Positions 2,865-59,514 of a stretch of DNA of 61,103 bases are shown one piece after another. Both the position numbers and the translations under genes were made by a program. Source of the stretch: a virus (lineage: Duplodnaviria > Caudoviricetes); IMG/VR virus record IMGVR_UViG_3300030090_003848, positions 1 through 61,103 of that record; one strand, 5' to 3'. The notes beneath the pieces were generated by a model. It searched no databases. It was given only the letters and a program-made list of their open reading frames with translations, and was not told where the DNA came from. The first letter of the stretch is position 1, and the number at the start of each line of letters is the position of its first letter.

Positions 2865-3821
2865 ATGTCAGATACCACTAGCCACCTCGACGCCATGACC
2901 GCCGACGAAATCAACTCGATCTTCCAGATCGTGATCAACCCCAGCCGGATCGTGACCACCGGAAAGAATGATGATGCCAAGAAGGCCATTCTGGAGGCCG
3001 CTCCGCCGGAGGACCGTGACGAACTCGCCAAGATATTCAACTCGTCGGGCCGATTCCTCCCGACCGCCAACACCTGCCTCGGGGAACTCCGCTCCCTGAA
3101 CAACGCCATGATCAAGGAGATGGTGAGCGCGGACGATGGCCGGAACTACGACGGCCTCGAAAAGACAGGCCGCGCCAAGACATACATCGGGCAGCTCAAG
3201 GACTACGACCGCGCCTTGGAAATCTTCGATACCTACTCCCCCCAGATTGGGGCCTGCGTTTCCAAGATCCGCTCCGAGTGGGAGTCCCTCAAGGAGCAGG
3301 GCCGGTTGGAGATGAAGCAATACGGGGACGGTTTCGAGTTCCCCGAGGTCGAGGATTTCCTTGCCAATTCCGATGCCAGTTTCGAGATCGACACGGTCAT
3401 CACCGACCAGAAGATCTTGAACTCGGCGCTGGCCGAGCAGGCGGCGAGGCTCAACGCCCGTCACAAGGCCGACAAGGATCGCCAGATCCGCGAGATCGCG
3501 GGTCGCCAGATCAAGCTCATCCTTGACCAGTTCAAGGCGTGTGAACAGCGGCTCCGCGAGGCTGGCACCGTTGTCGATGGCAAGCGCAAGCGGCTCAAGA
3601 AAAACAACTTCGAGAACACTCTCGATGCCGCCGCAAACGCGAAGAAAAAGAACTTCGCTAACATCCCCGAGGTCGAGGTCGCGGCTGCTACCGCCGCCTC
3701 CATCATCAAGGATGTGGACAACCTGCCCGACAACCCCGCCGAGCGGGCCGACATGGCCGACGAGATCAACAAGGCCCACACTGCCCTGAGCAGCAAGATG
3801 GCAGCCGCCGGATTGCTCTAG
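2865..3821 (+). CDS. Helical protein between AAA and vWA genes (possibly DUF3150-like)
   Basis: 318-aa ORF; family suggested only by synteny and helical character. Confidence 0.6.
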   Translation: MSDTTSHLDAMTADEINSIFQIVINPSRIVTTGKNDDAKKAILEAAPPEDRDELAKIFNSSGRFLPTANTCLGELRSLNNAMIKEMVSADDGRNYDGLEKTGRAKTYIGQLKDYDRALEIFDTYSPQIGACVSKIRSEWESLKEQGRLEMKQYGDGFEFPEVEDFLANSDASFEIDTVITDQKILNSALAEQAARLNARHKADKDRQIREIAGRQIKLILDQFKACEQRLREAGTVVDGKRKRLKKNNFENTLDAAANAKKKNFANIPEVEVAAATAASIIKDVDNLPDNPAERADMADEINKAHTALSSKMAAAGLL

Positions 3822-10172: not shown

Positions 10173-13100
10173 CTAGCGTTCCACTGTCAGAAATCTTTCA
10201 CGTTCCCCGTGTGCCCGCATCAAGGTCCGCAGTCTCTGCTGGCCTTGAGCTGTTCTCATCAGAGACTCTGTGACGTTCTTGGTCGGGACAGGGTTTTCCA
10301 TGAACCCTGCGAACAGGAGCTTGGACCGTCGGTCCCCGTATCGGGCGGCGGTCATGGCCCCGTAGATACTCTGGTTCGTCATGCCCAAACCTTTCATGCC
10401 GCGCATGGCCTGCATCAGTTTCTGGTTGACCCGTTTCCTGTCAGACAGAACTGACTTATGGACCGCCTCTACGGCTCCCTCGGTCATTCCCTTGGGAGTG
10501 AGCAGTTCATTGAAGGCTCGGCCAGCTCTCCGATGCTCGTCCCTTAACTGGTAAACAACTCTTGAGAATTGGTCTTCAGGCTTATAGAAGCGAGGCCGGA
10601 CTGGCAGGGAGTCATAAACGACAATCCCAAACGGAGAGTCTGCGAACGACTCCGGCGCGTCACCGAACCCTGCCTTGATAGCTTCAATCGCCTTGAGCGG
10701 AGTCCGAGGCCCATACGCTTCCCGACCGACATACTTTAGTTTGTTGAGCATACGGATATGCAGCGGCTGCGATGACTCAACAATAGGCATATTGGTTTTC
10801 GCATTGCGGTTCTCCATTACGTCTATGATAGAACCCGCTAGGATCTGCTCTCCCAAGTATGGCTGGAGGATAGCAGCGGTAGTCATCTTCTCGACTGCGG
10901 TGAACGGCTCTCCCCGAACCATGTGTTCCATGCCCCGAAGCAGGGGGTCCACGATAATGGAGAACGGGTTGAGGTAGGTAAGATCCAGAGAACCTATCTC
11001 CCCATCATCAGTCTTCCACAACCAGAAAGTATGATTTCTGAGATAAGGGGGCAGGGACATGCGGAATGCCTCGTCCTCGTCTTCTCCCATCTCGCTCAGT
11101 AAGGACCGGAGCAAAGTCGGAACAGCCATGCTCAACCCTCCGGCGATTGCAGTCATCGATAGAACCCGATTATACCCCCTCCGCCTCATCACAGGGTTCT
11201 TGGAACGTATGTCCCTGAACCCTCTTTTGTAGGTGTTAACAACGATGCGTGGGACTTCAGCGGTGAACCGGATGAACGGTGCGAATACGAGTCCCCATCC
11301 CGAGCCGCTTATTTTTTTGATGATCGGGAGAGCGCGTGAGTATGACTGGGCAGTGTCACCTATGATCTCCGCAGCCTCTTGCTTGAGTTCCAGATCAGAC
11401 ATATTTGCGTATGTCTGCTGGTCCGGCGGAAGCAACCTGTCTGCTTCTTGGGCTTTCCTGAGAATAGCCAGTTCATTCTCGTAGTAACCGATCTTGTAGA
11501 ACGAGTCCATTGCAGACGCCAGTCGAGCCAGAGTGTTCATCATGCTCGTATACTTAGCCCCGCCCTGCTTTATCAGGTTCTTATCAGAGAGTTTCTTTTG
11601 CAGGTTAACTATCTGCTCTTGGACCCCATCGAATGTTTCTTCGCCATTGATGAGCCGGAGCATGATCTGTGAGCGGACTTCGTTACCGAATACGTCCAGC
11701 CCCTCAAGCTCTCGTAGGTATGCATTGGTAGCCGCCTTGTTTCCTTTGAGTGCCCTGCGAACACCCTGCCAAGCAGACATCCCTCGGCCCTCGCCTACGT
11801 CCCCGCTCCATATGTCCTTGCCAGCTTTCCAATACCCTTGGGCTGGACCGAAGAACAGGACGTTTCCGAGCATGTTCCGTAAGAAGAATCCTACCGAGAA
11901 CAGGGTCTTGAATCCCATAGCCGAACCTGTCGCTAGCTGGGCTGCTCGCATGGACCCGTGCAAGAGTTGTGACGAAGCGTCATCCCCAGATCTGGGAGTC
12001 TGCTGGAACATAGGCCGGATACTATTGTAGATGTCTGGGTGGACATACATCCCAGCCAATGGGTTCAACCCACTATCGGCACTCGTCGAGAGAATCTTTT
12101 TGTATTCGATGAACTCACTGTAGTTCTCTCCCAGTGCTTTGTTGTATTGATCCGCAGTCAAGAGCCAAGGAGTCTCCGCCTGCGTCCCCGCCTGTTTCAT
12201 TTTCTCAAGGAACGACTGGTGTGCCGCGATCTTTGCAACGGTTCCAAACGAATACAAAAGGTTGTCGATGCTGGACTCGGGGAGGTTATTGGCTCCCATG
12301 AGATCCGCCAAGGGCTTAGGTATGTCAGACCTCTCCTTGAGGTTTTTCACGATAGCCTTCAGTCCACCAGACATTCTGGGGGCCACTGTCTTGGGCATGC
12401 CAGCCAGTTCAAATGCTGACGCGAAGTCTTGGGCCTCGGTCAGTTCTCCCTGACCTCTCCATGAGTTGAGGAACTCTGCGGCCATCTGGAATCCGAGAGA
12501 TGCTCCTCCGTTAGAGGACTTTGTGTATAAGCGGTAAGACTCATCTTTCGCGTCCTGCAAGGTAAACTCTCGGTTACCTGCATTGTCGCGCATGAGTTCA
12601 TCGGTCTTGTTTTCAATCCACTGTCCCCGCATAAACTCGATAGCCGCTTCCCTGACCGCTACATCTTTTTCTTCTTTTGAAGTTAAGATGCGCTTCACAT
12701 ACCCAGAGTCAGAGAACATCTGATACCTGCGGGTGATGTAAAGTCCCATATTATTATCGAACTTAGCAATAACATCGTGGCCTCCCCGACCGAACAGGTC
12801 TCGGGCTTTTGCGGAAAGCTCATCAGTAAGACGGCGGAGGTCTACGATAACGGTAAAGAGGTCTGGAGCAGTATCGGCTAGTTCCGAAAGGGCAGCGTCC
12901 CGACCACCCAGAGCTACCTGTTTGTTGGCCATCCTGCTTTTTTCCAAGGTCTCTTTGAACGACTGTTCTTCTATTTCTGTTTCCGCTCCCTTGCGGGCAT
13001 CGGCCCTTTTCCTAGCTTCATTGATGCGTTTGTTGAGCCGGTCTTTAGCTTCTTTAATTCTCTTCCTGCTTTCGGAACCCAGCTTGCGGATTTCTTCTGG

Positions 13101-16100
13101 GGTCTGATTTCCATCAGCCCGCATTTCGCGAACTATAAACGCTATGTTTTCTTTGTCTTTCGCGAACTGGTTTTCCGCGTCCTCGATCTCCTGTGACATG
13201 ACCACTCTGGACCTCGCCTTGATTTCATCCAGCCGTTTGATGTGCGCTTGCTGAAGATCGTTGTCTGGGTCTGGGTCGATATTGTCCAGTGTTCCCACAG
13301 CAGCTTGGATAAGATCCCAAGGAACATCGTCGGGCGAAGAGTAATACTTATCAATCGCGGCGGTATACTTGTCGTGGTATTCCTCGACCATTTTCTCGGT
13401 AGTCCGCAAGAACGCATCTCTCTGGCGGGCATACTTCTGAACAGTCGGGTCCGTCTCGCCAACGAACATCTTAGCGAACTGTCTTTTCACTAACTTAAAT
13501 CCACTACCCGCTCCTGCGACGGGGAGTTCAAGCAGTTCAATGAAGTTTCCGTAGTCAACCTTGTCCGCGTCAAACTCAGATGGAAGATCTGATTCATCCC
13601 CGAAGACCCCCGAAAAAATGTATCTCTCGTCTGCTGGATTAAATCTAGCTTCCAATGGAATAAGATTAAAGTCTTCGTCGAGAGTGACTGGTGCTGCTGA
13701 CTTGATCAGACGCGAATCTCTGACCGCGATGTTCATGTCGTTGTCATCAAGAACTGGGAAGTTACCGTCTACGTCCGTAGCTACCCCGTTCTCTGAAATC
13801 AGCATCCCGTCATATTCGCTCAGGACGGCATCGACGACTTGTTGATTTTCCCAGAAATTCCAATGCCCGTTTGCAAGGTTACCTTTGTTCTTTTTGATCC
13901 ACTCTTCTATTGGGGTTGCCCGCCGGTCGATCACCTCATCTGTAATCTTGAACTCCGTGTCTTTATTCGGGCGGTTTTCATACAGCAAATCAGAATACTT
14001 TTCCCAGTCTTTACGCGGGTCGAATAGCTTATCTACTTTTAAGTAGACGGGGATAATCTCCAGACTTCTTGGGGGCGCTAGCTTTCCACTTTCTACGACA
14101 TTGTGGTTAACTTTGTTCTGCCCAAACTCCCGTGCAGAGTCTACATCAGGAGTAAAGAACGTCAGGTTGGTTGCCGTGCTAGTGCTTACTATATCGGACC
14201 CCGTCTTTTTCGGGTCGAAGATGGTCAGCACCCTATCGGTCCCGTGGTAGGCTACCCCGATTTTCCAGCCAGCAGCCCGTGCCGCCGCGTCTACCATTGG
14301 GCGGAGTTTGTTTCGGATCTCCTGCCCCTTCAAAGAGTTTATCTCTGGGGCGGGTTTGTCTTCTTCAATCTCATACTCAACCTTGGACCCCCAAGGTTTC
14401 ATAGCCATGATCAAGGCCGACTGCTCGTCGTAGGCCAGATGTTTTTCGACAAGCTCCATGAACGCCTTGCTCCCCATGCTCTCCTTAGCTTCGTTAAGGA
14501 CAGACATGTATTCCTTGTTAATCGCCCGAAGTTCTTTGACCGTCGGGTCAGGTAGAATCGACGAGATGGGTTTAAGGAATGACGGATCAGCGGGGAATCC
14601 GCTAAGGCCAATGGCCGACGGGAGGTCGGTGCTAAGACCCTCTGGGTCTGGGGGAAGGTTATCTACCTCAACTGCTCCGGCACCAGCTCCATCAGGATCT
14701 CCTCCGGCACGGGCGTCGGGTGATCTGGATACTCCAGCATCAGGAAGTCGCTTGAGTCGAACGCTTTCTGTGTAGGATTTATCTCTAGCAACCAAGCTGC
14801 GCTCGACTGGTGTGGCCCAGTCTGGGAGGCCATATCCTCCAAATCGCTCCTCGATAAGGTTCCTTGCTTCGCCATCGTCATTTGTTTTATTCCATATTTT
14901 ACGGGACTCATCAAGAACTGTTTCTTCGACCCCCTTCTTAGCGTAGCTCGCGGCCTCCCGTTTCTGCTCTGCGGTAAAGAGAGTCCTGACTTGCTCCCAC
15001 GTTATCGACTGAATTTCTCTAGTAGATAAGTTAGTCCCGTCCCGCCCGTTGATAAACGCGGCAGCGTCTTGGTGCGCTCTGAGGAACATGGCGTAGACCC
15101 CCATCATGCCAAGCTCGGCGTTGCCACTGCTGCTGATGCCAGTCCCCCCGAAGTTGTGGGTAACTTCATCACTGCCTCCTGCAACCGGAAGCATGAGCGC
15201 GGCACCAACCGCGTGTGTGTCCACAGTCCCGTCCATGATATTGGTCGGGTCTGCAATATTGTTGCGGAAGTTTCTGACCTTGTGCTGATTCCCGAGGAGG
15301 TCACTGTGGACCTCGGGGTCGTCGGTAAGGAAAGAATCAACCGCCTTTTGGATCTCGGGGTATGAACCCCAACCCACCTTTGCGATCTCGCCGTTCTTGG
15401 TCCGTTGCAACTGGACCCTGTTTCCTTCTGGGGTGATAATCGCGTAACCTCTCGGGTGATTCAAATAGTCAAAAGTCCTAACGAACCTAGCGGGTAGCGG
15501 ACGCATCCTCGCCAGTTCTGCGTTCCTGCGTTTCTTGAACGCCTTGTCACTTTCGCCCTTTTTCTGTGGTTCAGGTTCAAACGAGGCTGCTTCTTCGATG
15601 AGCTGGGCTAGGGTCTTGCCCTCCATGATGACTACCATAGCCTCGGCGCTCTTCTTAGCCTGAGCTTTTTTCTTGGCATGAGCCGCCGCAGTAAGCCCAG
15701 TCTTAGGAATGTTCTGGGACATCTCGATGAACGCATCGGCCATCTCCTTATCGAAGACAGTTTCCTGCTGTTTAGATACCACCTCCATTACTCGGCCAGC
15801 CAAGGACACGTTCTGGAACCAGTCCTTCTGTGGGCTGAGAACCGCGATGGTCGCAGCAGCTTGACCCGTCGTTATGTTGTATCGGGTAGCAAAGTCTTGC
15901 GCGATACGGTTGGCCCCCTCATACCAGAGCTTGGCCCGCTCCCTGATCTCAGGGTGCATAGTGTCATGCAGGTGAACCAAGTTCTCAACCATTCCCTTAT
16001 GCACACTCTCATACACCTCGTCTGCGAGCGGGCGCATCTTATCGAAGAGATCATTCTTGAAATCAGACTTCCATTTTTTGGCGGCGGCCAAAGTAGTCGG

Positions 16101-19100
16101 CGTGTCTGGGTCACGAACAAACTCGATCAGCCCTCTAACAACTTCCATCTGGGCTTCGTCCCCAGTGTATGGAATTTGCCCTGCCTTGGCCTTTGCTGGG
16201 GCAACGTATAGCTTCTTTGCAATCCGCGTAACAAACGCATCAGTCACCTTACGGGCTGATTTTATTTCGCTTATAACGGGCGTGGTTACCTTCGTGTCTG
16301 AGAACGCGGCTTTGTATCTGTCGTTCAGATACTTCAGTTCCCTGTAGGCCGCCGTGTCCTCACCCCTCGCCTCAACCGCTCGGCCTTTGCGGTTCTTCCG
16401 ACCTTTGAATATCTGGTATCCAGCAACGGTGGGCGCGTTGAGGACATAACTTTTCTGACGGGCGTAGTTCTCAAAGGTGCTGTCCTCCGCTCTGTCGCTA
16501 GCCCCCTTGCCTGTCGCGGTCCTGAAGCGAGCAGCGGGTTTGATATCCAAAGCAGAAATATCCAATGGCGCGTCCACCGCAGACAAATCTTCTGCCGTAT
16601 CGACCATGATCCCTGAACCCAAGCCGACTGTGCCTTCGCTTATAGCCTTTTGCCTTACCTCCGCCTTCGTTAGCTTTTTAGGTTGCGGCTTTGCCCTGAG
16701 ATTAGCTATCTGGATAGTCAGATCCAATACTTCTTCCAGTGCTGTGTTGGCGCTTTCGCTTGCCTTGTCTCCAAGGAGGAGACGTTTGATTATATCAATA
16801 AACTCTTGGAATACTGACTTATCGGGTGAGGCGGGTAATTTTCTAAGGAAGTCTTGGAAGTGGGGGTTTGACCAAGCGTCAGCGATAAACTCCTCTATAC
16901 TGTCTGCGGCGTAGCCAAGTTTCCGGTCGGCGGCAAGCCCGCGATGGAAGACATCTGGGTGCATCCTGAGTTCCTCTTCAATCTGTGGCTTCACCCAATG
17001 ATAGAGCTTAAACAAATCCCTGATCGGAGCAGGAACCTTGGCCACTGCCTCGGGGTCTTTGAACCTACCACGACTAATATAGTTCACGGGCAGTAGGTCA
17101 CGTATCTCGGTATCATTGGGCGGTAATTTCCCTTCAGTGACGGCCCGCCCACCATCAGTGCCTTCAGCATACACCCAATTATCTAGTGCTTGTCGTTTGC
17201 GTGACGGTCCACCGCTTGTTTTCGAGACTCCCGCTTCGTATAGCTTTATCATGCTGGCTGCGTGTCCAGACTCATGCGTGAGTGACATGCCCCAAGCCTG
17301 TGCTGGGGTGAAGTGCCGCCCAAACGGCAATGACGTAGTAATGGAGATTTGACCTTGGGGTCCAGTCGCCGCGGTCCCCCTTAGACCAAACTCAGGCCCA
17401 CCAGTTTGCGTCTTAAATTTGTGCAGTCTGCTCCGACCAGCTTGGGGACGATCCTCGGGTTCCCACTCTTCGATCCTGCGCTGCTCGGAGGGTGTCAGTT
17501 CCTCTTCAGGCTTAATCGCATGCCAAACTACTCTGGTCTTATCAAAATCTTTACGGCCACTCGGACTCATGCCGTTCCGTAAAATAAGCAACGACCCGAG
17601 ATACCTAGACTTAGTGTCTTTGGGGATCAGGTCGATAACCTCCCCCAACGACATAGACAGACGCATTTCGCCAGCGCCCCCCTCTTCAGGCAATGATTTT
17701 TTTGCTGCCTGCCAGCCCTTTGTTTCCATTATCTCAGCGAACTCTGCGTCCCCTTCATCGGCGGGGAACAAATCAGCAGATTCTGGTCCGAACATGATCC
17801 CTGAACCCAGAGCCGTTGCCTTGCGCGGCTTGGCCACAATCATGCTCGCGGTAGATGCGTCTTCGTCAATGTCGAGCACTTCAGATATCTCATCCTTGTA
17901 TGCTTTCAGTGGACGGTGTAGCTGGTAGCCTTTGGAGGTCGGCCCTTCTTTCTTACTCCTGTCGTAATAAACTGTGATGTAGATTTCTCCCCCGTCTTTT
18001 ACGGCATCGTTCGCTTGTTGGAGAACCCTGCGCCTAGCTCCTTTTTCTTTAATGACGTTAAGAACATTGGACAAAGTTGCAGTATCGGCTTGGCCCCCGT
18101 GGATCTTCTCGACCGCTTCCTCAACGCCCTCGGGGCGGGCATACGGGTCATACACATAATTTGTCACCCCCTTGCCTGCTAAGTATTCAGTTGCCAGTTC
18201 TGACTTGCCGCCGCCGATGTCGGCATTGACCGTTCCGGCCACCCAGTTTTTAACTCTACCAAACAAAGCCCCCCGTTGTGAAAGGCTGGTATCTTGAGAG
18301 CCTATTTTCTGGGTAACGCCTTTGAGATCCCATACATCACTTACCTGTATCCCTGAACCCAGATCCAATGTTCCCTGCTCCAGTGGCTGGGCTGGTCTGC
18401 GGAGATCGAATCCCTCATCGTAAGCGTATGCCACTTTGGCTGCATGATACTCACGCATCACTTCCATCAGCCTTACATCTGACATGTCATACAAGCTGTA
18501 GGAAATTATTTTGTCGCCACTATGGGAAAAGAACTCTATCTCGTCTTCATATTGGTTATCCCTGATATCTTTCCAACGCTCAAATTCTCTTTTGATCCAC
18601 GACTCGGGGTCGTTAATCATCCTGCCTATGAATATGTCTTCGATTTCGGTGAAGCCTTCACTGGCGTAGAAATCATAGAGTTGCTTTCCTTCAATGCCGC
18701 GCCTGTCGGTAGATCTGAAAAACAAAGCAATGTCAGAGCCTGCCTCATCCATCTTTCTAAGAAGTGCCTTGAGCATAGCCCTGCCTACTCCTTTGGATCT
18801 AAATTCGTTTGGAACGACAATATGCCGGAGATAAACATGCGGTTTTATCTCTTGGTCAGGGGCATCTAAGAAACTTTTTGTAAACCCTTCGCGTGCTTCA
18901 ACAGCGAACGCAGGGAACATGGGGTCTTCCCCCGCTTCGATTGTCTCGGAGATAAGGTCTGTGAAGCCGAGATCGGCTGGGTCTACCGCCGTGTAGACAA
19001 GACCAGTAAACTTATCCCGTTCCTGCACTCCCAATGATTCGGCACCCTTGACGGCTTCGAGATTTAGATCCCGACCCGTCAGCGTTATGCCCGATGCAAC

Positions 19101-22100
19101 TGCAAGCTCTTGTTCGTCAGGTTGATCGACGGACTTATTCATCCCCGCTTGTTTCTTGAGCAGCTCAAGGACAGCTAGGGGGTTATCCGCGTCAAATGTT
19201 TTAATGTTACTGAGGCTTCTAAAGCCGAGCTTCAGCGCCCTCAGTTCATTAACTACTCTGTTTATCGCCGTGTTAAGTTCTGGAGATATGTTCTTACGGG
19301 AACGGTAGTAACCCAATTTCTTCAGGAACCGTTGGAAATAACGGATAACATACTGGAGAATGCTGGGGTTAGTCCGAAGGAAAGCTACGTCTTCTTCAGT
19401 AGAAAATCCGTTCGTGGCCCGATCCGCGTGTTGGCGAAGCATTTCCTCCATTACTTGGATCTGAGTGGTTGGGTCTCCAGCCCGCCACTTCTCCTTCATC
19501 TTCTCTCTCATCGAGGCAGCTCCCGCAGAGTCATCGCCATACTCATCAATCGCTTTGTATGCATCGGCAATAGTCATCGCGCCGATAATCTCCTGTTGCT
19601 CTGTGCGAGTAATCGCAGCTACTGATGCGGCGTGGGCAATCTCTTCGTTAATGACGACCGAGATAATCCCCCGAAGTGTTTCGGGGGGAACTTTTCTCCC
19701 CGCGTTCCGACGCTGTAGGTCCACCATTAGCCCGTTTAATTTTTTAGGGTTTATGGTCAGGACTCCGGTATCGTTGTCCATCTTGGCCATCTGAGGGATA
19801 GTCTCGCTCACCTCTGTCCTTACTTCAGGTGGAATGACGGCTCCTTTAAGATACCTGACTATCCGCTCATAAGCGTCCCCTTCTTCTTTCTTAGCCGTAG
19901 CGTCAACTCCGGTTGCTTCTTGAATCGCAGAAGACAAATCCGCTTGCTCTTGCTGGGCAGTCGAGACCCCCTTGGTAATCGTATGGACTACCGTGTCGGG
20001 AGTGATCGGCTCTTTTGGGATCGTGTTTTCCGACACAGGGGTAAACGGGAAAACGCTTTCCTCGATAAAGTCTACGGCTTGCTTGGACTTTTTGTTGGGC
20101 AGTGCGAGGAACTCGTTAACCGTAATTAAATCTTTCTTTTTACGACGGCGAGCGCCTGCTTCCAAAACAGAAGAATGCGAAAGATCCAGAACGGCAGAGA
20201 ACGCGGCATCGAATCTAGGGGTTGCCCCCCGAAAAAACGAGCGGATGGCCATGATGATTCTTTGGAACGCGCTGTAAACAGCGGGTCCGCGATCCCCCGT
20301 CATTGTTTTTACAAACTGTTGGAAGTCAGTTGACGTAAGGAAGTGGGCAACGAACTCATCTACGTTTGCCAATGCATCATTGATCCGTGAATCGTTAAAC
20401 GAGAACACTCCAAGGTTTGGCAGTCTGCTCGACGGAGTAGTGATCACATTCCTTATGGCATACTCTGAACCCATCGCAGCGTAGTCTTTCTTGAGTTCAG
20501 AAATAGTGGCCTCCAAAGTTTGGATCGCAGCCGTTTCCTGTGGGGTTCTAGCCGATTCGGGCTTCCCTGTAATGTTAGTTACATAAGCGTGGATAAGCTC
20601 ATGCAGAAGAGTGTCTGCCAGCCCCCTCGGATTATGGCCATTTATATTCAAGGAGATAGCCGGAGTTCCATCGGAGAGTCTGTCAAACTTGCCCGCGTAA
20701 GGTTGATTTGTTTCGTCAATCGACAACTCAATAGTCTTAATAAAATTAGGAGACTGAAGAAGGAGCCGCGCCAGCGATACAAGATGCGTGTCGTATTCTT
20801 TCTGAGCGCGTTGCGAAAGCCCAGCAATTCTGTTGAGGGCCTCAATGATAGAGTCGGGGTTTCCGCTCTCTAAGCCCAACGCGGCTATCGCGTCATTGTT
20901 GAGCATCTGGACATACCCCTTGCCCATGTTGTGGGGCTGTGACCGAAGAAAAAGAGTGCGAACAGATTGCTTAACGTAATTAAAGAAGTTAAGCGTTTCT
21001 AAATCGGTAGCGGGTTCACCCTTAATGTTCTCAACTGTATCTTTAATCAGGGACAGGTAATCCGCGTCAGACTTAGGAGTCCCTTCAATAGAATTAGAAG
21101 TAAGCCCCATCAGACGGAGCGCATCCCTGACTGGAGCAGCCATGTCGAATTGGCGTGTCCTTAGTTCTTTTTGAAACAGGAGGCTGATAGAGTTGGACTT
21201 AGCGTTGCCCTGAGCCATCCAGTTCACAAGATGACCCCAAAGGGTTTTATTAGTCGTCCGGTTAAAATCAATGTTAGTTGTCTGGAAGACTTCGTTCTGA
21301 ACAATCCCTACAATCCGACGACGAAGTGCCGAGTCAGCAGTCATAGCTGCGACGGCATTAGCTTGAACTTCTTTATACGCGGCTGTGATCCTCGCTGGGG
21401 CGAACGGAGGGGCTATCTCTTCTTGAGGCGGAACGTATGTGTCTTCTGCTTCTACCTCTGGGTTAAAGTCTGGGTCACCTTCTAACTCAGAAACTTCGTC
21501 AACAGATAACGTAGACACAAAAGATTCTTTCTGGTGCGCCAACCTAGACTCCTGTTCCGACACATATGCATCAGCAATGCGGCGTCCGGCACTTGGTAAT
21601 GATGAGTAACCAGAAAAATCTGCCCCTTCAAACAACGCCTCCATTGAACTCAATCGAAGTTCTAACAGCGCAGCTTCAGTAAACTCGGGAGCAAGTTCTC
21701 CTTTAGAGGGTGCGAGAAACGGGGCGACTGACTCGTTAGATTCCAGACGGTCCAAGATATCCTGATTGGAAATTTTTTCGTCTGGGTTAAACGGGGAGGT
21801 CACCATGCCTTCTGGGTCTGCTAATCCCTTAGCCCGAAGATTAACTACGCGCTCAGTCAACTTGACCAACCTTGTGTAATCTGGTTGCAACGACAACACG
21901 CGGTCCATAGGTGTAACCGCAGACACAAGGCCCCCTGACTCAGGGATAACTATATCAGAAACAAAAATCTTGTCGTTAAACTCAGTAAACCTGAATGAGG
22001 GGTTTATCTGGTTTTTAATAAAAGACCTTACGTTTTTATCGACAACAACAGGAATCCCACGCTCAAGGAAAGTGAGCATATCCAAGGGGTCGTTGTTAAA

Positions 22101-25100
22101 CATGCCGACGCCGAACCGATTTACGAAAATTTTCCCGTCCCCATAGGCAGAGTTCATGGGGATGTCCCCTTCCAACGGTGAATAAGAAATACGAAGGAAC
22201 TTACTTTTGATTCCTTCAGCAATCTTTGCATTTGCCGAGCGGATAAACGCATCCGAAGTGGTCCGCTGATTAACGGGAATCCCCAGTCTTTTTAGTTTAG
22301 CAGGCGTAATGACATGTCGGAACCCGCTTGCTATAAGATTGTCAATCGCTTCGATTTCATCAGGGGCCTCAGTGACTTCGTCCAAGGTAACGTCCGAATC
22401 AATCTTGAGATTTGAAAGGGCTTTGACTCGGTCTTTGAACGCTTGCCCGATCAACTCTTCAGCTTGTTCTGGACTCACCGCTTTTCCTTCTTGGACACGT
22501 TTCCGCAAAGCCCGACCGACCGATGATTCGCCAGCAACTTCAGCGGAAGAAGCCTCACGGTTCATCTTAACGTAAAGATCTTTTGCCCGATTTATTTCGG
22601 CAACCCGCTTCCCGAATCTTGCTTCGATTGCTCCTGCTTCGCCCACCCTGCGGGGGTCTAGTATTTTAGACCGCTGCGGGGGCAAGGCTTCTTCGATAAC
22701 AGGTGGCGCGGGGGTTGGAGAAATAAGATCCCTTACAGATTGGTGGTCTGCATTTTCTACATAGCTAGATGAACCAGCAGGCATATTCATCCGGTTCATC
22801 AGAGCGCCTTTAATTTCCATCGTGGCTGGGTTGGCGTTCGTAGCTACGCTGGCCTTGTCTGCCATGACATCAGCAATAGCTGACGCTACGGAATCGGGGT
22901 TGACCTTATCCTGCAAAGCCAACTCCATTTGAGGGTCCGAAGTAATACCGGAGGGGAGCGGAGTTTCAGTTTCTTCCGCCGCAGGCTCTTCCTCGACAGT
23001 CAACTGGAGCAGGTCGTTGGGAGCGATGTCTGCCCTAGCGTCCTTCCGTTTCATGTCGGACACGGCTTCTTGAAATGCCTTAGCCGTTATTGGTGACCCG
23101 TTCGCGTTGAGATCAGCGACGGCCTCATTGATGATGTCGTCATAAAACTGAGCCATTTGGTTGGACCTAGTTATGGCTGGCCGGATAGATTTAAGGCCGA
23201 GTTGAACCGCCGGAACAGAACCACCCATTACTCCTCCCAAGGCAACCGCATGCCACGTTTGCTGCATCCGCTCTAACATGGGGGTGTCTTCATGGAGAGC
23301 GACATCGGTTATCATGCCGTTGACAAACTCATCAATCCCTTCCTCAACTCCTTCGTCTACAACATTCTTGGCTACACCTTTGAGACCACCAAAAGCATAC
23401 TTCTTCATAGTAGCTTTGATAGCTTTCTGGGCAGAGCTAAGGAGGTCACCGTCCAGACGCCCAGTGATGCCTCTGGCTACAACCCGCATATCTTTTGGAG
23501 TCAGTCCTTTAAGAAGGGCATCTTCAAGGCCCCCCTTACCTATAAGAGAAAACGCCGACGTAAGGACGCCAGTAAATGTTCCTGCCATAAGCATGGCCCC
23601 TAAAGACCTGTCGTGCGCTTCTTCTTCGGTGATGTCGGGGTTCTGCTTTAACTGGTTATACACGGCCCCGTAAGTAGCCGACCCTGACCTAGTAGCCGCA
23701 GGAATAAATACAGCGGGAGCAATACCTAGTTTTTGGGCGAGGGTTCCGTTGTATGTCTTCAGTAATTGGACTGCTCCCTCGGGAGAACCTTTGACTAAGC
23801 CTTTTTGAATAAGATCTTCAGCTTGTTCAAAGGCGGATTTCCCTGCTTGGCGTCTGAATTGGTTAGACGTAATTGCTTTTACAACGCCCTTAGCCGCGAG
23901 GCTTGCCGACGTTTTCCCACCCGCTTTCAACGAAGCATAAGCAAGTGCGCCAGTTCCACCTATGGGAGCGGTTCCGACCGCCAAAAGACCAGTAGCCGCT
24001 ACATCCATAAGCATGGGGAAAGCTGTTTCGGCTACGTCTTGAAGGAATGGAAAATCCTCCCCGAACACAGACGCCAGTTGCCTGCGGTCGGCATTTTTCT
24101 GAGACACAGAAGCCAGATAATCTTTAGCCGGATCGAGTCCAAAAGCCGCAGCCACTCCAGCAAAGGGGAGCAAGAACCCATTAACAATGGATGCCTTCAC
24201 GCCTGCTGCCCGTTCTTTGAAAACATTATAGTTGTCTTCGTCCGCTACGAAACCCTCAAGAATCTTGTAGTCGGGAACTCCCGCCCTACGACCAATCATA
24301 AGAGATTGGTTCCAGTCCTCGGACACACTGTCTTGTGACGACAGGAATTTGTCCATAGTTGTGAACTCAGACTTGAGGACATTCACACGCTGTTTATCGA
24401 GCATATCCTTAACGCTCGGGCTAAGGTTGGGGTGCGCTGCTAGTGTCTTGTCATAAACGTCTTTGTTTAACATCGCGGGTAGCGGCATGGACGGAAGTCC
24501 GAAACCACCGAACCTCAAGTTCTTACCCACTTCGTCGTCCTTGTCGTAGGACTTAAACATTTGTTTCTGCATCGCGTTATCATGGATAATCTGCTTCATC
24601 GCAGCCTCCATGTCTTCGGGACGCATATTAAATTTAAGCGCATACTTAGCCGCGAGTTGGCTATGGTCTATGCCTCGGGCTTCTTCGACTGCCTTTCTCC
24701 GTTGTTCAGCTTTATCAAAGGCTTCCTCTTGCCCCATGATCCGGCTTAGTAGGCTTCTTCCAAATCTAGGAACAGCTTCCAGCGTCTTTAGAATTTTATC
24801 CCCCGTATCAAATTCTTTTTCGGCTTGTGCAGTCGATAAGCCATCAAGCTGAATTGCAAAATCGGGGTTCTGTTCCCGCTCTTCCTCAAGTAAGTTAACG
24901 GCGCTTACTATCTTTTTTAATTTGTAAAGCGGTAGCTTATGCCCGTCAGGGGTTTCTAGCTGTGGCATAACCGAGAGCGCATCCCGCATGGAAATGTTTG
25001 CTCTGGACGAAGCCTTCAGGGCGCTGACAAGGCCCATTTTTTCGGCGTTCTCTCCTACAAGGATCTCCCCATCAGATAGCCTCGCAATGGGGAGTTCTCC

Positions 25101-25577
25101 TGACTCGACCTGTGACCGGAAATTTTCGTCTTGCCGCGTGTTTAACGTGGATTCTACTTTTTCTTTTAGGGGCTGGAGTTCTTCCAGATATTCCGCAGAC
25201 GGGGCTTCTACGGAAGACGCTTGCAAGTAGTCCTTAAAAGACTGCTGGTCTGGGTCGTTGGGAGAAAGCGACTGGTAAAACGATCTCGCCCGTTGGTCAA
25301 ACGAACTGCCTTTTTCGAGGTCAGAAATCCTCTGCTCAATTTCTTCTGCGTTCTCCCCGTCAGAAGAAAGAATCCCTTCTTGTTGCAAAGAAAGGGTAAA
25401 CCCTTCTTTGATCTGACCCTCCACTGTTGGGTTGTAAGCTCTTGCCTTAATGTATTCTTCCCGAAGATAGTCTCCGTATTTCAAGCGGCTTTCGAGAGGA
25501 TCATCATAGGGATTCTCGGAGGACCATTCAGAAAAACCAAGTGGCGTAACAGGTGGGGTATCAGATTGCTCTGTCAT
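10173..25577 (-). CDS. Giant polyvalent (probably virion-injected) protein, 5134 aa, with zincin, GNAT, methyltransferase, glycosylase-like and ADP-ribosyltransferase domains
   Basis: HELIH (aa ~1659); degenerate NEEIAH (~1977); GNAT EFRSKGVG..FY...GF (~2258); MTase DIGGG..YDPY..SNVLNVI (~2453); HESGH..EEFIA (~2768); WY..LSPQ..KVRNF..TVDTH..Q..TW (~3247); YHGT..FFT..PVYL..YDG..IKSA (~3777); helical N- and C-terminal regions typical of large ejection proteins. Confidence 0.85.
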   Translation of the reverse strand: MTEQSDTPPVTPLGFSEWSSENPYDDPLESRLKYGDYLREEYIKARAYNPTVEGQIKEGFTLSLQQEGILSSDGENAEEIEQRISDLEKGSSFDQRARSFYQSLSPNDPDQQSFKDYLQASSVEAPSAEYLEELQPLKEKVESTLNTRQDENFRSQVESGELPIARLSDGEILVGENAEKMGLVSALKASSRANISMRDALSVMPQLETPDGHKLPLYKLKKIVSAVNLLEEEREQNPDFAIQLDGLSTAQAEKEFDTGDKILKTLEAVPRFGRSLLSRIMGQEEAFDKAEQRRKAVEEARGIDHSQLAAKYALKFNMRPEDMEAAMKQIIHDNAMQKQMFKSYDKDDEVGKNLRFGGFGLPSMPLPAMLNKDVYDKTLAAHPNLSPSVKDMLDKQRVNVLKSEFTTMDKFLSSQDSVSEDWNQSLMIGRRAGVPDYKILEGFVADEDNYNVFKERAAGVKASIVNGFLLPFAGVAAAFGLDPAKDYLASVSQKNADRRQLASVFGEDFPFLQDVAETAFPMLMDVAATGLLAVGTAPIGGTGALAYASLKAGGKTSASLAAKGVVKAITSNQFRRQAGKSAFEQAEDLIQKGLVKGSPEGAVQLLKTYNGTLAQKLGIAPAVFIPAATRSGSATYGAVYNQLKQNPDITEEEAHDRSLGAMLMAGTFTGVLTSAFSLIGKGGLEDALLKGLTPKDMRVVARGITGRLDGDLLSSAQKAIKATMKKYAFGGLKGVAKNVVDEGVEEGIDEFVNGMITDVALHEDTPMLERMQQTWHAVALGGVMGGSVPAVQLGLKSIRPAITRSNQMAQFYDDIINEAVADLNANGSPITAKAFQEAVSDMKRKDARADIAPNDLLQLTVEEEPAAEETETPLPSGITSDPQMELALQDKVNPDSVASAIADVMADKASVATNANPATMEIKGALMNRMNMPAGSSSYVENADHQSVRDLISPTPAPPVIEEALPPQRSKILDPRRVGEAGAIEARFGKRVAEINRAKDLYVKMNREASSAEVAGESSVGRALRKRVQEGKAVSPEQAEELIGQAFKDRVKALSNLKIDSDVTLDEVTEAPDEIEAIDNLIASGFRHVITPAKLKRLGIPVNQRTTSDAFIRSANAKIAEGIKSKFLRISYSPLEGDIPMNSAYGDGKIFVNRFGVGMFNNDPLDMLTFLERGIPVVVDKNVRSFIKNQINPSFRFTEFNDKIFVSDIVIPESGGLVSAVTPMDRVLSLQPDYTRLVKLTERVVNLRAKGLADPEGMVTSPFNPDEKISNQDILDRLESNESVAPFLAPSKGELAPEFTEAALLELRLSSMEALFEGADFSGYSSLPSAGRRIADAYVSEQESRLAHQKESFVSTLSVDEVSELEGDPDFNPEVEAEDTYVPPQEEIAPPFAPARITAAYKEVQANAVAAMTADSALRRRIVGIVQNEVFQTTNIDFNRTTNKTLWGHLVNWMAQGNAKSNSISLLFQKELRTRQFDMAAPVRDALRLMGLTSNSIEGTPKSDADYLSLIKDTVENIKGEPATDLETLNFFNYVKQSVRTLFLRSQPHNMGKGYVQMLNNDAIAALGLESGNPDSIIEALNRIAGLSQRAQKEYDTHLVSLARLLLQSPNFIKTIELSIDETNQPYAGKFDRLSDGTPAISLNINGHNPRGLADTLLHELIHAYVTNITGKPESARTPQETAAIQTLEATISELKKDYAAMGSEYAIRNVITTPSSRLPNLGVFSFNDSRINDALANVDEFVAHFLTSTDFQQFVKTMTGDRGPAVYSAFQRIIMAIRSFFRGATPRFDAAFSAVLDLSHSSVLEAGARRRKKKDLITVNEFLALPNKKSKQAVDFIEESVFPFTPVSENTIPKEPITPDTVVHTITKGVSTAQQEQADLSSAIQEATGVDATAKKEEGDAYERIVRYLKGAVIPPEVRTEVSETIPQMAKMDNDTGVLTINPKKLNGLMVDLQRRNAGRKVPPETLRGIISVVINEEIAHAASVAAITRTEQQEIIGAMTIADAYKAIDEYGDDSAGAASMREKMKEKWRAGDPTTQIQVMEEMLRQHADRATNGFSTEEDVAFLRTNPSILQYVIRYFQRFLKKLGYYRSRKNISPELNTAINRVVNELRALKLGFRSLSNIKTFDADNPLAVLELLKKQAGMNKSVDQPDEQELAVASGITLTGRDLNLEAVKGAESLGVQERDKFTGLVYTAVDPADLGFTDLISETIEAGEDPMFPAFAVEAREGFTKSFLDAPDQEIKPHVYLRHIVVPNEFRSKGVGRAMLKALLRKMDEAGSDIALFFRSTDRRGIEGKQLYDFYASEGFTEIEDIFIGRMINDPESWIKREFERWKDIRDNQYEDEIEFFSHSGDKIISYSLYDMSDVRLMEVMREYHAAKVAYAYDEGFDLRRPAQPLEQGTLDLGSGIQVSDVWDLKGVTQKIGSQDTSLSQRGALFGRVKNWVAGTVNADIGGGKSELATEYLAGKGVTNYVYDPYARPEGVEEAVEKIHGGQADTATLSNVLNVIKEKGARRRVLQQANDAVKDGGEIYITVYYDRSKKEGPTSKGYQLHRPLKAYKDEISEVLDIDEDASTASMIVAKPRKATALGSGIMFGPESADLFPADEGDAEFAEIMETKGWQAAKKSLPEEGGAGEMRLSMSLGEVIDLIPKDTKSRYLGSLLILRNGMSPSGRKDFDKTRVVWHAIKPEEELTPSEQRRIEEWEPEDRPQAGRSRLHKFKTQTGGPEFGLRGTAATGPQGQISITTSLPFGRHFTPAQAWGMSLTHESGHAASMIKLYEAGVSKTSGGPSRKRQALDNWVYAEGTDGGRAVTEGKLPPNDTEIRDLLPVNYISRGRFKDPEAVAKVPAPIRDLFKLYHWVKPQIEEELRMHPDVFHRGLAADRKLGYAADSIEEFIADAWSNPHFQDFLRKLPASPDKSVFQEFIDIIKRLLLGDKASESANTALEEVLDLTIQIANLRAKPQPKKLTKAEVRQKAISEGTVGLGSGIMVDTAEDLSAVDAPLDISALDIKPAARFRTATGKGASDRAEDSTFENYARQKSYVLNAPTVAGYQIFKGRKNRKGRAVEARGEDTAAYRELKYLNDRYKAAFSDTKVTTPVISEIKSARKVTDAFVTRIAKKLYVAPAKAKAGQIPYTGDEAQMEVVRGLIEFVRDPDTPTTLAAAKKWKSDFKNDLFDKMRPLADEVYESVHKGMVENLVHLHDTMHPEIRERAKLWYEGANRIAQDFATRYNITTGQAAATIAVLSPQKDWFQNVSLAGRVMEVVSKQQETVFDKEMADAFIEMSQNIPKTGLTAAAHAKKKAQAKKSAEAMVVIMEGKTLAQLIEEAASFEPEPQKKGESDKAFKKRRNAELARMRPLPARFVRTFDYLNHPRGYAIITPEGNRVQLQRTKNGEIAKVGWGSYPEIQKAVDSFLTDDPEVHSDLLGNQHKVRNFRNNIADPTNIMDGTVDTHAVGAALMLPVAGGSDEVTHNFGGTGISSSGNAELGMMGVYAMFLRAHQDAAAFINGRDGTNLSTREIQSITWEQVRTLFTAEQKREAASYAKKGVEETVLDESRKIWNKTNDDGEARNLIEERFGGYGLPDWATPVERSLVARDKSYTESVRLKRLPDAGVSRSPDARAGGDPDGAGAGAVEVDNLPPDPEGLSTDLPSAIGLSGFPADPSFLKPISSILPDPTVKELRAINKEYMSVLNEAKESMGSKAFMELVEKHLAYDEQSALIMAMKPWGSKVEYEIEEDKPAPEINSLKGQEIRNKLRPMVDAAARAAGWKIGVAYHGTDRVLTIFDPKKTGSDIVSTSTATNLTFFTPDVDSAREFGQNKVNHNVVESGKLAPPRSLEIIPVYLKVDKLFDPRKDWEKYSDLLYENRPNKDTEFKITDEVIDRRATPIEEWIKKNKGNLANGHWNFWENQQVVDAVLSEYDGMLISENGVATDVDGNFPVLDDNDMNIAVRDSRLIKSAAPVTLDEDFNLIPLEARFNPADERYIFSGVFGDESDLPSEFDADKVDYGNFIELLELPVAGAGSGFKLVKRQFAKMFVGETDPTVQKYARQRDAFLRTTEKMVEEYHDKYTAAIDKYYSSPDDVPWDLIQAAVGTLDNIDPDPDNDLQQAHIKRLDEIKARSRVVMSQEIEDAENQFAKDKENIAFIVREMRADGNQTPEEIRKLGSESRKRIKEAKDRLNKRINEARKRADARKGAETEIEEQSFKETLEKSRMANKQVALGGRDAALSELADTAPDLFTVIVDLRRLTDELSAKARDLFGRGGHDVIAKFDNNMGLYITRRYQMFSDSGYVKRILTSKEEKDVAVREAAIEFMRGQWIENKTDELMRDNAGNREFTLQDAKDESYRLYTKSSNGGASLGFQMAAEFLNSWRGQGELTEAQDFASAFELAGMPKTVAPRMSGGLKAIVKNLKERSDIPKPLADLMGANNLPESSIDNLLYSFGTVAKIAAHQSFLEKMKQAGTQAETPWLLTADQYNKALGENYSEFIEYKKILSTSADSGLNPLAGMYVHPDIYNSIRPMFQQTPRSGDDASSQLLHGSMRAAQLATGSAMGFKTLFSVGFFLRNMLGNVLFFGPAQGYWKAGKDIWSGDVGEGRGMSAWQGVRRALKGNKAATNAYLRELEGLDVFGNEVRSQIMLRLINGEETFDGVQEQIVNLQKKLSDKNLIKQGGAKYTSMMNTLARLASAMDSFYKIGYYENELAILRKAQEADRLLPPDQQTYANMSDLELKQEAAEIIGDTAQSYSRALPIIKKISGSGWGLVFAPFIRFTAEVPRIVVNTYKRGFRDIRSKNPVMRRRGYNRVLSMTAIAGGLSMAVPTLLRSLLSEMGEDEDEAFRMSLPPYLRNHTFWLWKTDDGEIGSLDLTYLNPFSIIVDPLLRGMEHMVRGEPFTAVEKMTTAAILQPYLGEQILAGSIIDVMENRNAKTNMPIVESSQPLHIRMLNKLKYVGREAYGPRTPLKAIEAIKAGFGDAPESFADSPFGIVVYDSLPVRPRFYKPEDQFSRVVYQLRDEHRRAGRAFNELLTPKGMTEGAVEAVHKSVLSDRKRVNQKLMQAMRGMKGLGMTNQSIYGAMTAARYGDRRSKLLFAGFMENPVPTKNVTESLMRTAQGQQRLRTLMRAHGERERFLTVER
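16605..18362 (-). repeat. Dispersed junction repeat CATGATCCCTGAACCCA (16605-16621, 17793-17809; 13-bp core at 18349-18361), encoding LGSGI
   Basis: Exact DNA identity including synonymous positions; each copy lies at a domain boundary of the giant gene. Confidence 0.9.
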
Positions 25578-59114: not shown

Positions 59115-59333
59115 ATGAAACTTCATATCATTGCAGCCAGTGCAGCATGTATCCTGTTCGGGGCATCATGTTCCACTGCGGACTTAGGCAGCTCAGTTCC
59201 ACTTCCGTTTACCGAGCCAGCAACCTCGGCAAAACTGGATCTGGAACTTCGCCCACTTCCTCCAAAATTCTGTATCGGGCTTGACCTCGTTCCGACGAGC
59301 GAAGAGTCCGGTGCGGGCGAGACAGCAAAGTAG
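59115..59333 (+). CDS. Small lipoprotein
   Basis: MKLHIIAASAACILFGASC signal peptide and lipobox. Confidence 0.7.
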   Translation: MKLHIIAASAACILFGASCSTADLGSSVPLPFTEPATSAKLDLELRPLPPKFCIGLDLVPTSEESGAGETAK

Positions 59334-59401
59334 GGTCAGCGCGGGGGCGTCAGACCCTACTGGACATGACAACTGACAGGCAGTTCAGTTGGCTCCCGCG
59401 C
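59329..59401 (+). ncRNA. Pseudoknot candidate overlapping the lipoprotein stop codon
   Basis: S1 AGTAGGGTC/GACCCTACT (9 bp), S2 GCGCGGGGGC/GCTCCCGCGC (10 bp, one G-U), internal hairpin CAACTGA/TCAGTTG. Confidence 0.6.
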
Positions 59402-59407
59402 AGCTTT

Positions 59408-59461
59408 ATGGCCTACGAAAAACCAAAGCCAAAGCCTAAACCGAAGCCTAAAGGTAGGTAA
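59408..59461 (+). CDS. 17-aa peptide MAYEKPKPKPKPKPKGR (or C-terminal extension of the lipoprotein)
   Basis: KP repeat encoded by varied synonymous codons; followed by a terminator. Confidence 0.5.
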   Translation: MAYEKPKPKPKPKPKGR

Positions 59462-59470
59462 GGGCGAACA

Positions 59471-59514
59471 ACAAAAAACCCGCTTCGCAGCTCATGGCGA
59501 AGCGGGTTTTTTTG
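59471..59514. terminator. Bidirectional intrinsic terminator
   Basis: AAAAAACCCGCTTCGC/GCGAAGCGGGTTTTTT between convergent genes. Confidence 0.88.

Follow-up and report, generated by a model that had tools for sequence, protein, structure and literature searches.

A predicted, conserved pseudoknotted RNA element at the stop codon of a probable phage lipoprotein gene

The lipoprotein gene and the small Lys-Pro ORF

The window, by which we mean the whole stretch of DNA analysed here (61,103 bp), is an entire IMG/VR virus record with a completeness estimate of 98%. Its gene content includes DNA polymerase A, primase, helicase, exonuclease, terminase and endolysin together with an ORF of 5,134 codons, and ARAGORN returned no tRNA-like or tmRNA-like match in the window. 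Shine-Dalgarno motifs are missing from the genes of this phage and therefore initiation is probably set by local structure. A small gene unit on the + strand, flanked by genes of the - strand, consists of a lipoprotein gene (59115-59333) and a small ORF (59408-59461). A G+C-rich hairpin with an A-run and a T-run on its two sides lies at 59473-59513 (assigned to neither strand); it was not picked up by a simple terminator scan of the window, and is likely to be a bidirectional intrinsic terminator which ends the lipoprotein/small-ORF unit. The - strand neighbour of 738 codons has no match in Pfam, PHROG or PDB.

The lipoprotein gene, taken from the list of open reading frames, encodes a probable lipoprotein of 72 aa (MKLHIIAASAACILFGASC followed by STADLG...) and ends with GCA AAG TAG, the TAG stop codon being located at 59331-59333. 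The N-terminus is hydrophobic and is followed by ...G-A-S-C/S-T..., in which the Cys is invariant, by reading, across 34 homologous loci. Searches of Pfam, PHROG and PDB with this protein were empty, and the lead obtained from the Atlas is 'Lipoprotein family' with a score of only 0.76. Relatives were collected with two queries, the lipoprotein (34 viral loci) and the 738-aa neighbour (49 loci, on largely identical contigs). The closest of them, L052, has a lipoprotein identity of 94%.

The small ORF comprises 17 codons and a stop (MAYEKPKPKPKPKPKGR; + strand) and has homologous ORFs in relatives. Three-frame translation combined with a script identified a Lys-Pro small ORF in 13 of the 34 relatives' loci, every time with an ATG of its own and mostly beginning with MAYGK.... 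Two further loci, L060 and L062 (MSKKQTARVAPKKPSRK), passed the filter for K, R and P and were excluded from these 13 because their ORFs are located past a terminator and are dissimilar. Altogether 17 distinct peptides of 17-30 aa were obtained, which are composed almost exclusively of K, P and G and have their ATG at the homologous place. They start with MAYGK or with MANK, MPNK or MPKH, and GY or GR is frequent at the C-terminus. Compared with L123, the window carries a duplication of 4 nt (GGTA) that trims ...KGKGY to ...KGR. Lys-Pro repeats form rigid periplasmic spacers in TonB. The putative gene of a conserved, polycationic Lys-Pro peptide of 17-30 codons is flagged here, and ORFs of this kind would be overlooked by gene callers.

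The distance between the two genes falls into two groups. At eight loci the ATG is found 2-5 nt past the lipoprotein stop codon (TAA or TAG, then ATG GCY TAC GG), with no structured element and no space for one. The other 5 of the 13 loci have a spacer of 69-74 nt, as in the window, and these spacers are homologous and alike in fold.

A pseudoknotted RNA element across the stop codon

A pseudoknotted RNA element of 73 nt, conserved in relatives, is predicted at 59329-59401 on the + strand. Stem 1 pairs a 5' arm at 59329-59337 (AGTAGGGTC; AGUAGGGUC), which includes the UAG stop codon, with a 3' arm at 59353-59361 (GACCCTACT; GACCCUACU) and thus places nine Watson-Crick pairs across the stop. 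The 5' arm of stem 2 (GCGCGGGGGC, 59339-59348) lies within the loop of stem 1 and pairs with a 3' arm at 59392-59401 (GCTCCCGCGC; GCUCCCGCGC), giving ten pairs, one of them G.U; this 3' arm stops 6 nt short of the ATG of the small ORF. A third hairpin, P3 (59370-59391), is formed by seven pairs between CAACTGA (59370-59376) and TCAGTTG (59385-59391), has the loop CAGGCAGU and adjoins the 3' arm of stem 2. With respect to the stop codon, stem 1 begins 2 nt before and stem 2 begins 5 nt after it. All of these were read directly from the sequence, in agreement with the earlier note, which had described the GCA AAG TAG ending and stems of 9, 10 and 7 bp.

In its layout the element resembles preQ1-II riboswitches, which are H-type knots whose loop 3 contains a hairpin beside stem 2. 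The 5' arms of stems 1 and 2 are separated by only 1-3 nt, which makes a stem 2 of 10 bp a tight fit, and the two stems could therefore be alternative states. The nested minimum free energy (MFE) fold retains stem 2 and drops stem 1. In one MFE fold codons 2-3 of the small ORF (CCUAC) were seen to pair with the 5' arm of stem 1; being missing from the L054 and L066 groups, this pairing was set aside as not conserved. A weak outer helix (AAAG/CUUU) can be drawn in some copies of the element and is not present in L136 and L109.

Taken on its own, the window sequence gives only moderate support for the structure. An 89-nt fold has a z-score of -3.5, with 2 of 200 shuffles folding equally well, and a 206-nt fold which includes the terminator has a z-score of -4.8. 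With G.U allowed, the + strand of the window contains 25 cases of interleaved stems of at least 9 and at least 10 pairs, as compared to 3-10 per shuffled 61 kb. The structure is therefore judged real from covariation across relatives and not from fold statistics of the window.

A covariance model, R1, was built from the window and L052 using stem 2 and the hairpin only, and it recovered the element in 10 viral contigs which had been reached via protein homology. Further copies were searched for with a three-part pattern, which took from stem 1 the stop/stem-1 motif and the 3' arm and from stem 2 the G-rich arm. The pattern left free both the base preceding UAG and the 3' arm of stem 2. Applied to viral contigs, the pattern returned 11 stretches, nine of them known copies and two rejected by the model. 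Scans of metagenome contigs and of genomes demanded UAGGG together with G-rich and C-rich arm motifs, and copies in other contexts lie outside their reach. In metagenome contigs these scans gave at least 120 pattern stretches, and the model accepts 21 loci among the 80 examined; among 80 of the 105 pattern stretches from prokaryote genomes, which could hold host or prophage copies, there is no convincing model match. In total, at least 21 distinct copies of the element are present in viral and metagenome contigs. Several candidates were dropped: L087 and L088, with pattern matches and no model match, and weak R1 rows in which the stems or the layout are missing (L003/L150 near 6433, E 0.2; L143, E 0.006; L239, E 0.21). 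No second copy was detected by R1 in the window or in 84 + 82 + 80 sources (~1.8 Mb in all), and on these grounds a mobile element was rejected.

Covariation was evaluated in two tables, since stem 2 and the hairpin had guided the model alignment, which also contains some register slips; the second table is anchored on fixed motifs. On the model alignment with stem 1 added, 96.7% of 456 cells are paired, as compared to 35-48% when partners are slid, and changes on both sides are seen at 11 of 23 pairs. The covariation score is 0.313 against 0.120 in shuffles, and none of 500 shuffles reaches it. By helix, the core of helix 1 has 97.3% of its cells paired with both-sided changes at 1 of 7 pairs, helix 2 has 97.6% with 6 of 10, and helix 3 (P3), to which the alignment had been fitted, has 94% with 4 of 6.

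In the anchored table, the seven-pair core of stem 1 is paired in 21 of 21 copies, except for the A of UAG, which is paired in 17. The pair immediately 5' of the stop is G-C in 15 copies, A-U in five and G.U in one, and inner pairs of stem 1 are variable too. The nine core pairs of stem 2 are formed in all 21 copies with a single G*A exception. Two of its positions, e1 and e3, alternate between C-G and U-A (10/11 and 10/10, plus one U.G), while e7 is G-C in 15, G.U in three and A-U in three copies. Swaps of C-G and U-A are already present among the 10 copies found solely by protein homology. Strong compensatory changes, which the earlier note had named as a check on the stems, are thus seen in the relatives. 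Over nine pair positions in each of stems 1 and 2 the anchored table holds 14 G.U cells and no A.C cell, suggesting that the structure belongs to the + strand RNA.

Conserved letters are located in the stems, with little conservation at the unpaired positions. A motif, CUGNCAGG, is found in or near the P3 loop in most copies and is missing in L162 and L130. A check against Rfam covariance models, also proposed in the earlier note, was run and gave no family overlapping 59329-59401 in the window at E values up to 10, and none on the element in the loci of eight relatives at E values up to 1. The literature searched describes neither the element nor a comparable Lys-Pro peptide of phages. Taken together, the comparisons indicate a real RNA of pseudoknot topology, conserved on the + strand and predicted to have two interleaved helices with a third hairpin beside stem 2. 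It would represent an undescribed structured RNA with strong covariation, fixed at a stop codon in abundant uncultured marine phages.

The surroundings of the element differ among the copies on its 3' side and are constant on its 5' side. A homologue of the lipoprotein precedes the element in 20 of 20 copies with a readable upstream region, the remaining one (L130) being cut by the contig end, and all 21 have the UAG within the 5' arm of stem 1. The Lys-Pro ORF follows 6-7 nt past stem 2 in 10 of the 21 copies and is missing from the other 11. In place of it, L053, L105, L004 and L106 have a second, terminator-like structured element after the knot. In the L061 group the knot is followed by a U-run and by inverted repeats resembling operators, and in L136 and L109 inverted repeats come immediately after it. 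Compensatory changes are found inside these groups without the small ORF as well (e.g., L061 versus L063, or L004/L106 versus L136/L109), which suggests that the knot is selected independently of the peptide gene. The comparison thus shows a predicted structure which is anchored at the 3' end of the lipoprotein cistron and is maintained by selection with or without the small ORF.

The knot is missing at 26 of the 34 homologous lipoprotein loci, where the stop codon is mostly TAA. By identity of the 738-aa neighbour, knot-less loci such as L058 (91%) and L059 (86%) are intermixed with knot-bearing relatives, which points to repeated loss or exchange of the element or of the ORF.

Frame relation between the two genes

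A_AAG followed by a pseudoknot drives -1 frameshifting in IS3-family elements, and the earlier note had suggested that programmed frameshifting of this type gives two isoforms of the lipoprotein. The window does carry the signals for it. The A_AAG tetramer, proposed as the slip site, is located at 59327-59330 on the + strand and its AAG is the last sense codon; stem 2 starts 8 nt downstream, a gap which was claimed earlier, is confirmed by direct reading and falls within the 5-9 nt at which a stimulatory structure is expected. The -1 frame, also claimed to be open, extends from 59285 to a stop at 59459-59461 and ends with the residues of the small ORF. The window resembles IS3-type -1 signals in its tetramer, its 8-nt spacer and the strong helix or pseudoknot that follows, and in addition the A site holds a stop codon and the -1 frame is open. 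An identical combination is present in L123, L055 and L103, which together with the window make up four of the ten copies with both ORF and knot and come from two lineages.

In contrast to IS3-type signals, however, neither the slip site nor the frame relation, the open -1 frame or the product of a shift is conserved among the relatives. At the position of the slip site the 21 knot copies have A_AAG (6), A_AAA (3), C_AAG (6), G_AAA (1) or N_GAG/A_GAA (5). The small ORF occurs in all three frames relative to the lipoprotein gene, being in frame 0 at five, in -1 at five and in +1 at three of the 13 loci with the ORF, and, among the 10 knot-bearing copies including those from metagenomes, in -1 in six, in 0 in two and in +1 in two. 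Stop codons in relatives had been named beforehand as evidence against frameshifting, and such codons interrupt the -1 frame between the two ORFs in L054 and L056, both of which have C_AAG in place of A_AAG. In the closest relative, L052, a 5-nt deletion in P3 shifts the intact small ORF into frame 0. The linker of 25 codons which a shift would translate is unconserved as protein, whereas the ATG and the MAYGK start, which a fusion does not need, are conserved. Moreover, the small ORF exists free of the knot at the eight loci with a 2-5 nt spacer, and the knot exists free of the ORF in 11 copies. A -1 fusion is possible only in the window, L123, L055 and L103, and is not what is kept by selection. 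It is therefore very improbable that A_AAG, with stem 2 or the knot as stimulator, promotes frameshifting to a Lys-Pro-tailed lipoprotein in the lineage of the window, and the claim of two isoforms is not borne out. The textbook appearance of the cassette is best regarded as a coincidence of this lineage, and a tempting false positive is thereby removed.

Two other routes to a joint product were rejected. Read-through of the stop codon would extend frame 0 past UAG by just 6-28 unconserved codons. Hopping, in which the ribosome leaves the last Lys codon and lands on another Lys codon within the small ORF, is at odds with the ATG and MAYG start, which are conserved whether or not the knot is present.

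Start, open frame and residue make-up of the small ORF thus survive changes in nucleotides and in relative frame. From this pattern the lipoprotein gene and the Lys-Pro ORF are shown to be two separate predicted genes, the latter with a conserved ATG of its own. This agrees in part with a second suggestion of the earlier note, a standalone RNA gating a 17-aa peptide: a real RNA and a separate small ORF are both indicated, and only the gating is conjectural.

Candidate roles of the element

The position of the element suggests a role at the termination of translation. We consider the chances about even that it is an intercistronic translational gate or insulator which acts in cis on ribosomes. 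A ribosome arriving at the UAG would have to open up stem 1 together with the 5' arm of stem 2. After the departure of this ribosome, the knot would refold in the path of a scanning post-termination ribosome, ending 6-7 nt before the next ATG, and would thereby replace the direct hand-over from stop to start which is possible in relatives with a spacer of 2-5 nt. Two options may be envisaged: the knot could insulate the downstream region from re-initiation, or the small ORF could start only while a terminating ribosome holds the knot open. In keeping with a mechanical role, stem 2 starts 8 nt past the last sense codon and the distance from the end of its 3' arm to the ATG is 6-7 nt in the 10 ORF-bearing copies. 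The knot is absent where the spacer is 2-5 nt (8 loci) and present where it is 69-74 nt (10) or where there is no ORF (11), a split which is drawn from related sequences and reflects few independent events. About half of the copies, however, have no downstream ORF to control. The pattern of conservation, concentrated in the stems and poor at unpaired positions, agrees more readily with a mechanical role than with a ligand pocket or an active site. On the other hand, a generic insulating hairpin needs no conserved knot, third helix or semi-conserved loop motif, and so something more specific may be recognised.

Stable structures centred ~9 nt past stop codons are described by Chemla et al. (bioRxiv 10.1101/2020.02.10.941153) as insulating against re-initiation, and they are reported there to be depleted if the next gene is less than 25 nt away and enriched if it is further away or if the gene is the last of its operon. 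The knot is similar to such a ribosome termination structure (RTS) in that it is a stable mRNA structure at the stop codon, at the edge of the footprint of the terminating ribosome. It also follows the same dichotomy, being present when the next ORF is 69-74 nt off or lacking and missing when it is 2-5 nt off. However, the RTS is so far known mainly as a genome-wide statistical signal of generic local folding, whereas the knot is one discrete, homologous and covarying pseudoknot of three helices, with the stop codon in a stem, at one gene of one phage group; insulation by it is conjectural. If the role suggested here is true, the element would be a discrete and conserved case of a termination-linked translational insulator or gate.

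A second comparison is offered by coupling through RNA unfolding, which has been described across long spacings, e.g., for genes VII and IX of phage f1 and for rpmI-rplT at +52 nt (PMC12548453). As in these cases, the knot reaches from within the upstream cistron to a point just short of the downstream start, it has to be opened by a terminating ribosome, and the spacing admits a second ribosome. It differs from them in that the start codon of the small ORF is unpaired in the knot, so that blocking of the start is only putative, and in that 11 of 21 copies have no downstream ORF.

An alternative, which we regard as rather unlikely, is that the knot is an element of the mRNA 3' end which blocks 3'-to-5' exonucleases or aids termination or processing, so that the message of the lipoprotein would outlive or outnumber what lies downstream. 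The invariable link to the 3' end of the lipoprotein gene, to which the small ORF is irrelevant, would be expected for such an element, as would G+C-rich stems with little conserved loops. The same role is suggested by UUUU(U) directly after stem 2, with no other terminator nearby, in the ORF-less copies L061, L063, L162, L174 and L130, and by the knot lying immediately upstream of the terminator-like element in L053, L105, L004 and L106. Yet a U-run is not present in L136 and L109 and is interrupted in the window (AGCUUUAUG), a canonical terminator follows the small ORF anyway in the window and nine other copies, and a stabiliser would not need a stop codon in its stem, which all 21 copies have. 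It is more doubtful still that the knot is a sensory or catalytic RNA, i.e. a riboswitch-like or protein-binding switch between stems 1 and 2, a small RNA derived from the 3' UTR, or a self-cleaving ribozyme. Two interleaved helices, a coaxial third hairpin and the loop motif do exceed the needs of a barrier, and the pseudoknot topology, the very short ORF downstream and the marine origin are shared with pseudoknotted cis-regulators of Rfam (preQ1-II, SAM-II/V and the glutamine-II 'Downstream-peptide'). In contrast to these, the element gives no covariance-model match (E = 10 in the window, E = 1 in the loci of eight relatives) and does not have conserved unpaired nucleotides of the kind usual in ligand pockets; even the loop motif is gone in L162 and L130. 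Moreover, stem 2 has a C-rich 3' arm, and Shine-Dalgarno sites, which such an arm might sequester, are not used by the phage.

Of similarly low probability to frameshifting is a programmed pause at the end of the 72-codon preprolipoprotein ORF, which would let the signal peptide reach the membrane before release. The element is partnered exclusively with a short gene that encodes a signal peptide, and with stem 1 starting two bases upstream of the stop, unwinding would begin ~4 codons before termination. Homologous lipoprotein genes of equal length are, however, often free of the knot, which is missing at 26 of 34 loci. A further reading, which we consider a long shot, is that the element is a new class of switchable RNA. 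A signal such as a metabolite, temperature or a protein, possibly the Lys-Pro peptide itself, would set stems 1 and 2 as alternative or cooperative states, and the switch would tune the ratio of lipoprotein to peptide in hosts which do without Shine-Dalgarno sites. In that case the peptide would be the minimal form of the Lys-rich disordered proteins of distant relatives.

In these distant relatives, Lys-rich low-complexity proteins of 70-155 aa come after the lipoprotein gene, and searches with them in Pfam, PHROG and PDB gave no matches. Their presence beside the lipoprotein gene suggests that the pairing of a lipoprotein with a polycationic disordered protein predates the knot. It may be speculated that the acidic tail of the lipoprotein could bind the basic peptide.

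The end of the small ORF and its possible long forms

In comparison to the locus L123 of a relative, the end of the small ORF encoding the Lys-Pro peptide carries a 4-nt duplication (GGTA) in the window at 59451-59461. The duplication shifts the frame, and the peptide therefore ends in ...KGR instead of the ...KGKGY of L123. A strong hairpin, preceded by an A-run and followed by a T-run, is located between convergent genes at 59473-59513 and is likely to act as a bidirectional terminator; a simple terminator scan of the window did not report it.

Distant relatives encode Lys-rich low-complexity proteins of 70-155 aa behind the lipoprotein gene, about 40-60 nt past its stop (loci L071, L074-L078, L082 and L085). 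Some of these proteins start with MAYKFK or MAFKFK and some finish with GGYGY. No PHROG family was found for them. It is possible that they represent long forms of the Lys-Pro peptide.

Elements downstream of the knot in relatives

In relatives, TCGACA/TGTCGA half-sites form repeated inverted repeats 60-150 nt 3' of the conserved pseudoknotted RNA (the knot), for example ATGTCG-N8-CGACAT. Such repeats, which probably act as operators or promoter elements, are present in, among others, the loci L053, L061, L063, L162, L174, L136 and L109. The 'ATG' seen right behind the knot in these loci is part of a half-site and not an ORF start. In L061, the repeats are followed by a tRNA gene (3404-3476).

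A second structured element, conserved and about 76 nt long, is located at 3300-3376 in L053, at 1085-1160 on the (-) strand in L004 and at 1396-1471 in L106; it is also present in L105, and in L059 it is positioned after the small ORF. Its long closing stem (ACCCGCU.../...AGCGGGU) encloses conserved inner hairpins and is followed by U's on the 3' side, an arrangement like that of a branched terminator. No Rfam match to this element was found in L053, L004 or L059.

Translation starts and the giant ORF of the window

A Shine-Dalgarno motif is absent upstream of nearly all of the 42 ORF starts inspected in the window, and A/C/U-rich sequence precedes nearly all of them, which suggests that initiation in the host of the phage proceeds without Shine-Dalgarno pairing. 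No tRNA gene was found in the window.

A quarter of the genome is occupied by a single ORF of 5,134 codons (10173-25577, (-) strand). In Pfam it matches DUF7178 with 66.6 bits and, with 32.7 bits, ART-PolyVal, the ADP-ribosyltransferase of polyvalent proteins; matches to methyltransferase and GNAT are sub-threshold. Its product looks like a phage 'polyvalent protein'.
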